In this document: positions 24,001 to 36,000 of the stretch, one piece after another
Numbering within the stretch: the first letter of the stretch is position 1
Layout: every line of letters begins with the position of its first letter
From: Chiloscyllium plagiosum
Lineage: Eukaryota
Assembly (NCBI RefSeq): GCF_004010195.1
Contig: NC_057733.1
Span: 9,253,076-9,317,075 of the forward strand
Direction: 5' to 3'
Length of the DNA stretch: 64,000 nt
Made by a program: the position numbers and the translations under genes
Notes under the pieces: model-generated
Told to the model about the DNA's origin: nothing
Databases searched by the model: none
Seen by the model: only the letters and a program-made list of their open reading frames with translations

Positions 24001-27000
24001 ACATTGGCTAAAGTAAATCATCCCCAATGTCAGTTAAAAAATATGAATTCTGAAATCACAAACTGAGTTGTTAGAAGCAGTTTAACAGTACTGAATATTA
24101 GGCCTCAAACTACAGTTTTCACAAATAAATAGGTTTTTCTGTAGTTTAGATTTTACTGCCTCCCCATTTTGAATCCATTCCTTATTGACACTCTTCATAA
24201 TGAACCTACCAAGAAGCAGGTAACTGAAATAGTGGGCTTCTCCACAACTCTGCAAGGATCAGCTGGTCGAAAGTAGACATACCTGAAGCCCTGGTGGAGA
24301 CCCAGCAGAAAACTGATGAAATTCATCATGCTTATGTTTGGCAGGCTTGAGTGTTGGTCTCCACAGAAGTTTAAGCCTGCAACCAGAGATGCAATGTGAT
24401 CCCAGGCTGTAAGAACCAAAAGGCTGGCCGACACCAAGCTCTCCTAGAAGCCAATGACTACGGTATCCCCTCAGGACAGTGGCCCACTTTCCCCTTTACC
24501 ATGTGGCCCTCAGGAGACCCTGACTGCTTTATGTACATGGACCTGCACACTGAATGCATCAGCACAGAGAATAAAGTACACTAGACTGAGAATGACAGGT
24601 AAGATGCAATGCTTAGTTATTGAGTATCAATGCCTAAAGAGCAGAAAGCTGCTAATTGAAATCATCAACACTTCGCATACAGATGTTAATTTATATCAGT
24701 GATAAATTTATCATACAAACTGCATGCAACATATTAGATTGCTGATGCAGTTAGGGTTGGATCTTGTTGAAACCAGCTACCCATTCTTTTTCCTAAATCC
24801 TTCTGTTGTTAGCTTTTGTACCCTTGGAAAGAGATTTTAGAAAATCCCTGATCAACTGGTGAATTTGATCACAAACTTTACAAATTTACTTAAAGCCAGG
24901 GGGGCTGTATAACTCTGAAAAATTAGCTGACAATGGTCATTTTCATATTTCACCAGTTACAAAATAAGGATTTCCAACTCTTTTTGTTGTAAATGACAGC
25001 ATTCATGCAAACTTACCAAGTGTAGTCAGCCGAAACAGAATTATGTGAACCAAAAGCTAAAAGTGATGAAGGATGCCACCCATCATGCAAAACGAGGTGA
25101 AAGGTAGAGAATGTAAAGCATGGTGTACACTATATAACACAACAATGCATTTACATTTAATCTCCAGTAACCACACAAGTTTTGAATACATGTGGGGACC
25201 ATATAGTTAAAGTGAAGCATAGCAATCACAATTGCGCTCACAAACCTCCACCCCACCAAAAAAAAACCACAAAAAGGCAATGCTAAAGCCAAGACACAAA
25301 GAGTGCTCTAAATAGATAACTCCTTTTGGGTGCAGCCACTCCAACAGGAAGCAATATATAGTGTAACAAAGCCAGTGCACCACAGAATGAGAAGTGGGTT
25401 AATACAGAATTACATGTCCACTTTTCTTAATTCTGATTTCTGTACTATGATCCTTTACTCAAAAAGAAGCTAAAGTACAAACCTTACTTTTTATCCAAAG
25501 CACCCCCAAGTTCGGTTTATTTTTAGGCCTACCATTATAAAAAGGTTGCATCTAGTTGACTAATAGTTAGCCTAAGAATCCGACCCCTCAATTATTTGAA
25601 TTCTACAACTTCAAAGACCAGCTTGGTATTATTATAGACACATGATCAGCATAAATAATCCCATACAAGGTTAATTGAGAAAGATGTGCAGGTTAGGTGG
25701 ATTGACCATGCTAAATTGCCCCATAGTGATCAGGGATGCGTCGGTTAGGTGCATTAGTTAGGTTAAATAGGGTAATAGAGTAATAGGGTAGGGGAACGGG
25801 TTTGGGTGGGATACTCTTCGGACGGTTGGTGTGGACTTGTTGGGCCGAAGGGCCTGTTTCCACACTGTAGGGATCTATCTATTCAAGAAAAAAGTTAATC
25901 AACTATACAATGAATTGACAATATATTTTTCTAAATATCCAAAACATGTCATTCCATTATATTCAGACATCTAACATGAAATGCCAGATGATATTAGAAG
26001 TGATATTAGAAATAAACTGAATGTGCTTTTTCTAATGCCAATAACATAGACAAGATCATACCTGATCAGTAACATTGACATCCACATATTCACAGAAGGC
26101 ATAGCCTTTGGACAGAGATGTTGCACTGTCCTTCACTAGGTTAAAAGCTTTCAGAGGGCCAAATGAAGTCAGAAGTTCTTTCACCTGCAAACCAAATCAA
26201 CAGTGCAATGACGAATGAGTAATTTTGAAGAAATTACAAAATAAAGTTTTAAAAACTGTACAAATTAGTGTCCAAGAATGGAAATAATAGATCAACCCTC
26301 TTAGGTACTGGCATAAGATGGTGGAAGAGAAAATTCAATAAACTCTCAATATGATTTTAAACATCAGTTGTCAGTTATATAGGCAGTCTGAAGTTTAAGA
26401 ACAGGCCTGTAGTCAATACTTAGCATGAGGATAAGACATTTGAGTTGCATTAAAGGGGAAGAGATTTCCAGCTAAACAGCTGCCAGCACCAAGGCACTTT
26501 TACAAATTAAGCCACACCTAAATACTAATTCTACAAAAACAAAAATAGAAACTACCGTAAAAACTCAGGTCTGGCAGCATCTATGGAGATATAGTAGTTA
26601 ACGCTTTGGGTCCACTGACCCTTCTTCAGAACAGGTCACTAAATCTGAAACATTAACTCTGCTTTCTCTCCACACTTGCTGTCAGACCCACTGAGTTTTC
26701 CAACAATTTCTGATTACCAGCATCTGGTGTTTCTCCAATACAAAGACAAAGAACAAAATTAAACAATGTTGGCTACCTTTTGCTTATGTGTGATAAATAC
26801 CAACTAGCTTAAAAAAGGACAAAGGTATTTCACACATAAACAACCACTCCATTAAAAAAAAAACCTTTTCCTGACCAATTTATACAATCTAAAGTCACAG
26901 ATTACAATCCATATGAACAAAACCTCCAAAAAACCTACTTGATTCTTGAAGCAATGAAGAATGCTAGTTGATAGACAAAATTCTATCAGCTAAGCCTCTC

Positions 27001-33000: not shown

Positions 33001-36000
33001 AGGAAGCCAGTGCAATTTGCTCGAACAAAAATGTTGTTTTTATTTACTAGGTAACAAATTTTCAGCCAGCCATTTTAACACGAGCAAGTTTGCATTTAAA
33101 AAAAAAACTGGGGAGAAAGTAGAGCAATTAAAAATAAACGTTGCTATTATCAACTCCAAAACAGGCAACAATCCAATTTGTCTATTGCCTTTACCATAAA
33201 CCAACAGATATACTGCTCAGTGATTTTCCCAGAAAGGGTTTATCTATAAATCTAATTTGAAACTCCTCGATATAAGGACTGATCCAATTACACCAGCTCA
33301 TAGAAACCAATAGTGATTAAAGAAAAAGTCTTCAAAAACCAATTTGGAATTGCATTGGAGAAAGCTGACACCTTCAATAGTCAATCACTGCTACATAACT
33401 ATCAGGCCAACGATGTTTGGTCAGTGGCACAAATCAGTGCAGCTTGGGTTATATGAATTGAAGAGGAGAAAGAGCAGAACCACACTGTCAGCTTTCTCCG
33501 AGTGGGTTGCATCTATAGCTACCTGATCATCATTGAGGTAATTGGGCAAACCGCCAATGAAAAGCTTGTGTGGAGAATCCGGAACGACTGTGGAGACAAC
33601 ACCTATAGAGAGATAAGAGAAAGAAAACATGCCAATATAAACATCCTGGACTAGAACGTATGGGAGTAAGGGTTATTAAGTTGTACATGTTATACTTAAA
33701 AAAATGTAAGGAAGGAAAAATATCAGGGTCACACAAAACATTTTACCTCTTGATGGGAGGTAGGTAAGGGATTCAGAATGTCTGAATCACCATGGAGACT
33801 TCTACTTAGTGGATAGGAAGACATGTTTGCAATGAGATACACAGAAACTATACCCTAGAAGAGAGATGATCTGCTTCCATGTGGTACATAAGTGCAGTTG
33901 CAGATCTGATGATACTTATGGATGATGTTAGCCATGATGGGGACTTGAGCCACCTTTAGATTTGCAGTAGGGATAAAGGAAGGGTTCAGATAATGGACCT
34001 TGAGCAAGTTTTGTCTTGGAGAACAATAAGTGTATATATATTTATTTATGGAATACTTATGAAAGCGTATGTTGGAAGTTTCTTCCTGCACCTTAATTTG
34101 AATGAACTCACCCCTCTTGTTAAAGAAAAAAGCAAGCCACGTATGGGTCAGAGGAAAGCAGAAGCGTAACTGGTAAAACCTTCTGACTTACAGTGTTGCG
34201 AATGTGGCCCTAGTCACATGCGCACGTTCCCAGGCTGGCGTAGAATCTTGCTGCGCCAGCTGCTCCAAACCGGAACATAAAGACTCTGCAGGTTTCCAAA
34301 ATCCACAAGTGAGTGAACTTTTAATAGTTGCAGGGATTAAGAACCGGTGAGGATGGAAGAGATTAAAATGAAGAAAAAATTGAGAAAATGTCGAAAGGAA
34401 ACAGGGAGAAAGAAATAAATGTTCGAAAGGCAAGAGGAAAAAAAACAAAACAAAAAGAGAAAAAAGAGCAAAAGTGAAGGTGAATTCTTTTCATAAAGTG
34501 TATTTTCTCCACCACCCCATCCCGAACAAGCTAAAGCAGTATTTTGCTTTCAAATTTCAAACCGTAAATAATGGAAGCCAATAGCTTTTATGTTTTAAAC
34601 ATTATCTGAACCCATTTACGATCAATACTTAGTCTCCATTCAAATTATTTTGTTTAATTTTACAGCATCTAATATTGGAGGTAACAGGGGTTTAGCCAAA
34701 CCATTGCCACATTTTCTCTTAAGTGACTTGCTTAAAGATGCTTAGCCACTTATTCAAGTCAGACCAAGTACTCTGCACCTTGTGAGATTGTAGTACTGCT
34801 AGTTTTGCAGCCACACAGCTTGATGACTGTTGCGTAGCATTTTCCACTATGGGAGTCGAGCAAAGTCAGCAGTGTCCTGGGAGGGAAGCCTCCATACACA
34901 AGGTTCAAATAATCTGGACTTAACTCTACATTATTGGAACTAACCCACCATCCTCCACAGAGTATAAAAAATTACCTTAGGTAACAAGAACAGTGTTGTA
35001 CAACATTTTCTGACTCTTTTTAGTGTCATTATGATGTCAACATAATTTTCCTTAGACCAAGTTTCAACTCAGAGTGTTTATACATTCCGAGTCAGATAGT
35101 CACGGAGTTTCTCATCCACAGAATTATAATTCTGTTGTGCGAGTTCTGACACTGACTTTCCTTGCATTTTGTTTGCAATAGTATCTGCATTTTTTTCCAA
35201 TTTTGTTTTTGTTAAACATTTGTTCGAATATTTTAATTTTTGTTTCTATTTTAGCCAACAAATAGCTAATGTGAATAACGTTTTGGTGACCTGACATTAC
35301 ATCTGATGCATGCAGTATACTTAAACCTGCAAAGGAAGTCCAGCACACAGATGTTGCATTTTTTGACGGACCTGGAACATGGAAAGAAGGTTGCTCAGAC
35401 ATGCCTGGCAGAGGTTGGTAATCGTGAGGACGTCGGATCTTCAAAGACTGACCCTGGAAGATGATGCCATCGAATGCCATGGCTTGTGTAGTTTCATCAA
35501 CTGAACGGAACTAGAAAGACCAGGGGTAGAAGATACCATGTTTATTAAAAAACACAAAAGAGACAATGAATCATGAATCACTTTATTGATTTTAGATGGT
35601 GCAGACCTGAGCTGAAGAAATATTCTAGGTAAAGCTGCAAAACCATCCCTGTACTCTTAAGATATTGATAAACACCTGACATTTATACAGGAGGTAAAAG
35701 AGAAACTTAAGAGCAATTCATCTCAATCCTATCGGCAATATTTCATTTTCAATAGCAACCAACAACTTTTGAAAAGACATTCAATACGTTTTAAATAGTA
35801 TCATACAGGATGGAAACAGACCCTTTGGTCCAACTTGTCCATGTCGACCAGACATCCCAATTTGACTTAGTCCCATCTGCCAGCACTTGGCCCAGAGCCC
35901 TCTAAACCCTATTCATATACCCATCCAGATGCACTTTAAATTTGTAATTTTGCTTGCCTCCGCTACTTTCTCTGACAGCTAGTTCCATACATGCATTAAC

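Follow-up and report, generated by a model that had tools for sequence, protein, structure and literature searches.

Partial retention of introns 7–9 and two spliced cryptic donors in shark U2AF2 suggest a poison/decoy module

Introns 7–9 of the U2AF2 gene, analyzed here in a 64,000-nt window of Chiloscyllium plagiosum contig NC_057733.1, are kept in part of the U2AF2 RNA, and two cryptic donors within introns 7 and 8 are spliced in forms that carry premature stops. We give a probability of roughly 55% to the reading that retention and cryptic donors together constitute a poison/decoy module, which would divert transcripts when U2AF is plentiful; they likely restrain expression of the gene itself. 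Because almost all 3′ splice sites are read by U2AF65, the means by which cells keep its level steady matter.

The gene lies on the minus strand and is likely that of the core splicing factor U2AF65, as judged from its sequence. Exon 7 matched U2AF65 with E 8e-24, and exon 7 (35372–35510, 139 nt), exon 8 (33523–33602, 80 nt), exon 9 (26062–26184, 123 nt) and exon 10 (23730–23816, 87 nt), whose numbers we take to be those of the human gene, joined into an open U2AF65 frame. A genome search indicated a single-copy gene with no paralogue found in the genome; exon 3 was looked for and not found. Introns 7 (33603–35371), 8 (proximal part 30180–33522, distal part 26185–30179) and 9 (23817–26061) are 1.8, 7.3 and 2.2 kb in length, and the donors of exons 7 and 8 are non-consensus, that of exon 7 reading CAG/GTCCGT.

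Spliced RNA contigs carrying intron 7 or 8 sequence were found in four runs (X9, X10, X18 and X19) under three species labels, among the 6 of 24 listed runs that were compared with the gene; the four bear no RNA record and were taken as RNA by their spliced joints. For a stretch of which exons make up 4%, the share of words present was 0.92 in X9, 0.91 in X10, 0.42 in X18 and 0.39 in X19, and was 0.57–0.58 in DNA runs of X19's species. Contigs of X9 and X18 ran through the donors of exons 7 and 8, yet joined exon 6 directly across the spliced-out intron 6, a pattern that speaks against contaminating DNA. Intron 7 and proximal intron 8 lay under RNA contigs, and contigs of X10 and X18 also spanned introns 8–9 downstream, with 26185–29200 mostly covered; intron 9 was covered near-completely in X18, partially in X10 and not at all in X19. 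No exon 7–8 or 8–9 junction contig was present in X9, possibly through an assembly or filter effect, and X19 was chiefly spliced mRNA. The contig depths in X18 were 34.5 for intron 7, 166 for exon 8 and 126 for the exon 8–9 junction, figures that are not retention levels. The host introns are longer than 1 kb and, by the contig evidence, selectively retained, as in decoy-exon intron retention. In raw reads of the single-cell polyA run X21 (about 2 in 100 sampled), 11 were placed, all partial, 10 of them less than 90% alike. Separately, the intron 10 stub at 23060–23450 was without cover in X18 and X19 and had near none in X10, a weak hint.

A quite different origin of the intronic RNA would be intronic polyadenylation or an independent non-coding transcript encoded within introns 7–8. 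It would fit X19, which held much of 30180–35760, scraps of distal intron 8 and no intron 9, as well as AATAAA motifs at 34046, 33044, 30791 and 30569, and the RNA contigs carry no strand. We nevertheless hold it very improbable, because the contigs run into spliced U2AF2 exons, both cryptic donors join downstream exons, distal intron 8 is covered up to exon 9 in X10 and X18, and Rfam returned no family at the gathering score, a snoRNA or other intron-hosted RNA included. Rfam also gave four sub-threshold matches, three of them on a single palindromic repeat at 29510–29628; an interspersed repeat of 900 nt occupies 29219–30120 in distal intron 8.

Next, the cryptic sites were considered. A sequence-only reading of this DNA had listed at least six cryptic acceptor–donor units, nearly all of which would create premature stops, and had read them as an array of U2AF-sensing sites tuning the gene's output. 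AG and GT are indeed present at all six, and five of the six give a stop or frameshift; the exception, unit 31893–31885, is 9 nt long, keeps the frame and has a weak acceptor. In X9, donor 34192 was joined to exon 8 with GT..AG ends, and in X18 the GC donor 31407 (AAG/GCAAGT) was joined to exon 9, in each case in one contig and with the upstream intron part kept; the 34192 junction was not seen in X18 contigs, nor the 31407 junction in X9 contigs. The former donor belongs to the intron 7 unit (34192–34317), a CpG-rich segment with 6 CpG that measures 126 nt from 34317, with a stop at nt 102, or 94 nt with a frameshift from the alternative acceptor 34285, both acceptors being weak. The latter ends an 86-nt unit in intron 8 (31407–31492) with a strong acceptor motif and a stop at nt 34, and sits inside the proposed unit 31492–31180, whose donor at 31180 was not the one used. 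The retained-plus-donor forms of 34192 and 31407 reach a stop 245 and 99 nt past the upstream exon, respectively, and in both units and both of these forms the stop lies upstream of later exon junctions. Among the joints listed, no junction was found for units 33107–32990, 32674–32606 and 31893–31885 of intron 8 or 25056–25017 of intron 9, and no cryptic acceptor was seen used in X9 or X18 contigs, although contigs lose rare forms. Since no acceptor was seen in use and cassette exons were not seen, 34192 and 31407 may be plain alternative donors. Of the proposed array, only donor 34192 was used as listed, the GC donor within 31492–31180 being a different site from the one named, and four units are without RNA support; the expected retention and junctions appeared as introns 7–9 in spliced RNA contigs and two spliced donors, and not as acceptor use.

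The stretch at about 30.2–35.7 kb had been described as free of CR1 and SINE elements, and 30121–35789 (5,669 nt) was confirmed as repeat-free; this status is real, though not extreme, the stretch ranking fourth by length among 355 repeat-free gaps in the 464 kb of window and neighbours. In the genome, 30180–35760 matches nothing but itself. Splice-motif density was scored with a splice-site matrix at two thresholds. Proximal intron 8 held 14 strong acceptors against a shuffle mean of 4.3, a number reached by 0 of 60 shuffles and by 4 of 182 neighbouring 3.3-kb window-strands, and 9 acceptor–donor units, which overlap one another and are not independent, against a shuffle mean of 0.4 (reached by 0/60 shuffles and 0/182 window-strands). 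Intron 7 showed 0 units and no splice-motif excess, and the 2 units of intron 9 were equalled by about 5 of 60 shuffles. The excess is limited to proximal intron 8.

U-rich tracts were concentrated on the sense strand. Intron 7 and proximal intron 8 together carry 18 (11 in the latter) and only 2 antisense, and 18 was reached in 0 of 110 neighbouring 5-kb window-strands (mean 4.5); intron 5 of the shark gene has 0. Intron 7 also contains a 167-nt AG-free tract of 79% pyrimidine (34320–34486), the longest AG-free zone in the gene and likely a putative U2AF65/PTB-type binding platform. U2AF65 may bind these tracts, and the region is a putative U2AF sensor.

Two perfect 14-bp complementary pairs are a new observation. 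The 5′ arm (34600–34613) and 3′ arm (33982–33995) of one are predicted to pair and bracket the intron 7 cryptic unit; the other (33499–33486 with 33370–33357, spanning 33357–33499) starts 24 nt past the exon 8 donor. With a filter of at least 4 G+C within 1 kb, chosen after the pairs had been seen, 2 such pairs compare with 0.03 expected; none of 200 shuffles matched this, and 90 kb of repeat-free DNA from elsewhere yielded 1. The fold of 33960–34640, its ends picked around the helix, had a z of -3.4 (0 of 20 shuffles as low), and that of the whole segment 33357–33499 a z of only -1.3.

These features also admit a rather unlikely account in which the unproductive splicing is real and there is no U2AF sensor, other pyrimidine-tract binders, RNA structure or elongation rate setting its use by tissue or stress. 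Such binders include PTBP1, TIA1, hnRNP C, PUF60 and RBM39, and distant-branch, PTB-type repressed exons have a long AG-free tract and weak acceptors, the layout seen in intron 7. The runs moreover differ, X9 being without exon 7–8 and 8–9 junction contigs and X19 mostly spliced mRNA, and helices bracket the intron 7 unit, as in BRD2/BRD3 (PMC10789245, in excerpt). Against this account, the mammalian U2AF2 poison exon itself responds to U2AF depletion (PMC4402522), and decoy exons are generally bound by U2AF (PMC6097662), according to the portions of both papers that were available.

Divergence between species was lower in this region than in distal intron 8, at 1.6% vs 3.1% for A–B (p 7e-5) and 2.1% vs 3.9% for A–C (p 2e-5), comparisons that share a branch, used unequal likeness cut-offs and take as control a faster-evolving segment that may contain old repeats. 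It was not lower than in intron 9 (A–B 1.6% vs 1.8%, p 0.63; A–C 2.1% vs 2.7%, p 0.13). Species C had no listed substitution within 31383–31653. The alignments thus suggest modest constraint on the region. In a fish-like orthologue (L001), introns 7 and 8 are 137 and 412 nt and showed no similarity to the shark introns above shuffles. Of 115 relatives among metagenome loci, 80 were retained and only L001 and L002 looked vertebrate-like; there was no intronic match to 30180–35371 at E 0.01.

This limited conservation bears on a reading we consider improbable, that introns 7–9 are merely slow through weak donors, the cryptic junctions being noise and the motifs drift in a repeat-poor stretch. 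Divergence equal to that of intron 9 and a fish-like locus without a match agree with it; so do the non-consensus exon 7 and 8 donors, alone able to slow splicing, the single-contig junctions, none common to two runs, the three longer repeat-free gaps nearby, and the placement of most non-coding cassettes in non-retained introns, where they are irrelevant to retention (PMC6097662, in the part available). It does not account well for the strand-specific tract excess, equalled in 0/110 neighbouring windows, the acceptor–donor excess, equalled in 0/182, or the helix excess, nor for retention under three species labels and for junction contigs whose depth sufficed for them to be assembled.

In the favoured poison/decoy reading, U2AF65 would load on the U-rich tracts and define the cryptic exons 34317/34285–34192 and 31492–31407. 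The cryptic donor would then pair with the downstream exon, the upstream intron part staying, or the whole intron would stay as a decoy effect. NMD would remove fully included cassettes, which may be why these are rare in assemblies, and partly spliced forms would either be degraded or stay nuclear. Use of the intron 7 unit is predicted to be tuned by the 14-bp helix that encloses it, and with lower U2AF the yield of fully spliced mRNA would go up, which is what has been reported for the exon in mammalian intron 5. The interpretation offered by the sequence-only reading is thus partly supported, through selective presence in spliced RNA, two spliced donors leading to stops and sense-strand U-rich tracts.

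The kind of system is already known, and its place (introns 7–8) and layout were not found in the literature searched. That reading knew of no earlier description, which stands for introns 7–8 in the literature searched (PMC4402522 Figure S13, PMC6097662 file 5 and most U2AF2 rows of PMC11632617 lay outside the search); for the gene, human U2AF2 has in print an intron 5 PTC exon in Y-rich sequence whose 5′ splice site is GC; when U2AF35 is depleted, this exon is repressed and U2AF2 mRNA rises 2-fold (PMC4402522, in the sections available). A U2AF2 poison exon with self-eCLIP has been suggested at low confidence (PMC6547761, in part), age-related splicing of zebrafish u2af2b is noted with the event unnamed in the portion available of 10.1101/541417, and PMC13075997 is cited as a further precedent for a poison/decoy module; the available parts of PMC11346455, PMC7026658, PMC2481429 and PMC9304896 have no bearing on the U2AF2 module.

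As far as the accessible parts of these sources go, the shark module resembles the mammalian intron 5 exon in gene, cryptic PTC unit, GC 5′ splice site, pyrimidine richness and proposed feedback. It differs in placing its units in introns 7 and 8, with an intron 5 lacking U-rich tracts, and in three-intron block retention and donor-only use. Judged by position rather than exon sequence, the shark units in introns 7 and 8 are not orthologues of that exon. Decoy exons promote retention of SF3B1 intron 4, OGT intron 4 and ARGLU1 (PMC6097662, in excerpt), and the shark gene likewise is a splicing-factor gene with retained introns longer than 1 kb and several cryptic site pairs, most with PTCs; in contrast to these, only donors were seen spliced, the decoy role is putative, and no deep conservation was found in one fish-like locus, whereas SF3B1 decoys of fish or chicken share 79–98% identity with those of human. 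BRD2/BRD3 poison exons are controlled by complementary intronic pairs (PMC10789245, available in part), similarly a long-range perfect helix around a cryptic PTC exon with related genes using different introns, whereas the shark pairing is a sequence-based prediction. Turnover of unproductive splicing is described for SR genes (excerpts of PMC4379411), in which different lineages or paralogues reach the same regulatory end via different events; unlike in the SR paralogues, turnover in the shark case would have taken place between orthologues, and in a core factor of the 3′ splice site. We tentatively raise, with considerable doubt, the idea that the U2AF2 feedback switch moved in vertebrate evolution: this lineage would rely on detained introns 7–9, gated by long-range helices and by dense U2AF65 tracts where cryptic donors fire without acceptors, and would have reached a GC-donor poison unit independently of the one in mammalian intron 5. 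If true, control of a core splicing factor's level could be re-established at another site, as known for SR paralogues, and the intron 7–8 and intron 5 modules would form a natural pair for testing what a U2AF sensor needs in tract density, GC donor and helix.

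U2AF65 is encoded on the minus strand, where exon 7 (35510-35372) matched solved U2AF65 chains with an E value of 8e-24; an open reading frame crosses the joined exons 6-12 of U2AF2, which is present once in the genome and whose exon numbering we take to be that of human U2AF2. Exon 1 lies just beyond the window edge. It falls in locus L081, at about 68000 in window coordinates; intron 1 carries a 42-nt periodic array (67632-67170), and its distal 3.3 kb holds seven strong acceptor-donor units. Within the window, an 870 N assembly gap occupies about 62920-63790. No clear exon 3 candidate was found in 57579-43626 (minus), and the reading frame stays open when exons 2 and 4 are joined, so the 45-nt exon known from mammals may be missing from U2AF2 here. 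The exon 5 donor at 43252 (minus) is of the GC type (GAG/GCAAGT), and AG/GCAAGT recurs in the gene only at cryptic donor 31407.

Of 24 sequencing runs listed, six were aligned to the region (X9, X10, X18, X19, the DNA control X14, and X21), and X9, X18, X10 and X19 hold RNA, because spliced exon joints were present. Words of 30180-35760 (4% exon) were contained at fractions of 0.92 in X9, 0.42 in X18, 0.91 in X10 and 0.39 in X19; DNA of X19's species contained 0.57-0.58. In a single X9 contig, spliced upstream exons were followed by exon 7 and then by 1.18 kb of intron 7 (33603-35371), X18 contigs bridged the donors of exons 7 and 8 (33602-33523), and contigs of both runs joined across intron 6 to exon 6. 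Distal intron 8 (26185-30179) was mostly covered in X10 and X18, and intron 9 (23817-26061) was covered nearly completely in X18, partly in X10 and not in X19. These spliced contigs carrying intron sequence, together with the cover in X10 and X18, show a selective presence of introns 7-9 in RNA, most clearly of intron 7 and proximal intron 8 (30180-33522). X9 contigs were also unbroken over the donors of exons 7 and 8 alike (33437-35512), with no normal junction contig, which may reflect very high retention in this sample or an assembly effect.

The sequence-only reading had proposed six cryptic acceptor-donor units: 34192-34285/34317 in intron 7; 32990-33107, 32606-32674, 31885-31893 and 31180-31492 in intron 8; and 25017-25056 in intron 9. 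AG and GT were present in all six, and five yield a stop or frameshift, in agreement with the premature stops predicted for nearly all; the exception, 31893-31885, is an in-frame 9-mer whose donor has an altered -2 base in species C. Two donors were found spliced, each in one contig: 34192 to exon 8 (GT..AG) in X9 but not X18, and 31407, inside the proposed 31180-31492 unit, to exon 9 (26184-26062) in X18 but not X9, the latter read from a loose end equal to the exon 9 start. Donor 31407 is of the GC type in the window sequence (AAG/GCAAGT), its hexamer identical to that of the exon 5 donor. The upstream intron part was continuous with the upstream exon at both junctions, which lead on to exons 8 and 9. 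The other four units had no junction among the joints listed, and no cryptic acceptor use was seen in the contigs aligned. What the RNA supports is a real block of retained introns in which two cryptic donors work, smaller than the proposed array; it would act in the manner of a poison/decoy module.

Splice sites were scored with a frequency matrix at a strict and a looser threshold. Proximal intron 8 carried 14 strong acceptors against a shuffle mean of 4.3 and nine acceptor-donor units against 0.4 at the strict threshold (0/60 shuffles reached either), and 18 acceptors against 10.1 (0/60) and 11 units against 4.2 (1/60) at the looser one; in neighbouring real DNA, 14 acceptors were reached by 4/182 window-strands and nine units by 0/182. 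The same scoring found no acceptor or unit excess over shuffles in intron 7 and a weak acceptor-donor excess in intron 9. Intron 7 has a 167-nt AG-free tract (79% pyrimidine), the gene's longest AG-free zone, preceding its cryptic unit. Intron 7 and proximal intron 8 together hold 18 U-rich tracts in sense and two in antisense, 18 being reached by 0/110 neighbouring 5-kb window-strands; intron 5 here has none. Two perfect 14-bp complementary pairs, each spanning <1 kb and absent from the sequence-only reading, are predicted to pair on the minus strand. In one, 34613-34600 with 33995-33982, the arms bracket the AG-free tract together with the cryptic unit of intron 7; the other, 33499-33486 with 33370-33357, lies shortly after the exon 8 donor. 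Shuffles gave 0.03 expected pairs (two reached in 0/200) under a filter chosen after the list was seen, and one such pair occurred in 90 kb of repeat-free DNA elsewhere. A third pair is built on a 12-bp core (32499/31760), and its extended duplex is predicted at -35 kcal/mol.

The interval at about 30.2-35.7 kb is repeat-free as described, with no second match to 30180-35760 in a whole-genome search, but three longer gaps exist: 30121-35789 ranks fourth among 355 repeat-free gaps in a repeat map of 464 kb (window plus neighbours), unusual yet not unique. The window's elements are presumably CR1 and SINE; the analysis itself shows multi-copy repeats only. Elsewhere, 7.2 kb almost free of repeats (11119-18364) takes in the last exon and sequence downstream of it, with an 81% match to another contig at 13033-13373, and a palindromic repeat piece with sub-threshold Rfam microRNA matches (29510-29628) is most likely a mobile-element hairpin.

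Divergence was computed from contig pieces that include some exon, between close species, in two comparisons sharing a branch. The region differed at 91/5574 positions (1.6%) in A-B and 111/5260 (2.1%) in A-C, distal intron 8 at 74/2404 (3.1%) and 90/2315 (3.9%), and the intron 9 piece at 40/2233 (1.8%) and 53/1947 (2.7%). Among the first 40 of 158 entries, species C had no substitution in 31383-31653 (the intron 8 unit with donor 31407, and its tract). In the fish-like orthologue L001, introns 7 and 8 measure 137 and 412 nt, and their similarity to this region was not above shuffles. Because divergence is below that of distal intron 8 but close to that of intron 9, and L001 lacks similarity, constraint is suggested among close species, and deep conservation finds no support in this one orthologue. 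In a fish-like U2AF2 mRNA (L002, 1061-1100), the linker between RRM1 and RRM2 is longer by three residues (LAG) where exons 7 and 8 meet, possibly from an alternative acceptor.

Retention, the two donors, the stops and the tract excess were demonstrated. The intron 7-9 module most likely represents unproductive splicing that caps U2AF65 output, and we put the probability that it is functional at about 0.8. U2AF65 bound to the tracts would define cryptic exons, whose donor would splice forward or whose presence would block intron removal; full cassettes would be removed by NMD, and scarce U2AF would release productive mRNA. U2AF as the input is somewhat favoured; a different regulator setting module use is rather unlikely, slow splicing plus noise is improbable, and intronic polyadenylation is very unlikely.

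As in the mammalian U2AF2 intron 5 exon, a GC donor (31407) is used here, whereas intron 5 here lacks a U-rich tract. The hg19 window of a U2AF2 poison exon of low confidence reportedly falls in intron 5. Published work proposes that exon at low confidence (PMC6547761), and describes a PTC exon in intron 5 of human U2AF2 that is conserved in mouse, lies between Y-rich flanks and uses a GC 5' splice site; this PTC exon is repressed on U2AF35 depletion while U2AF2 mRNA doubles (PMC4402522). Further papers define decoy-exon retention with U2AF binding (PMC6097662), and report fewer RBM39 and FUS poison exons on U2AF2 knock-down (PMC13075997), poison exons under helix control (PMC10789245) and evolutionary turnover of unproductive-splicing events (PMC4379411). 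The claim of no prior description therefore survives in part: no account of a U2AF2 intron 7-9 module was found in the literature searched, which took in part of the supplementary files, but the intron 5 PTC exon is published (PMC4402522). The site and layout in introns 7-9 appear to be new, and the kind of system is already known.
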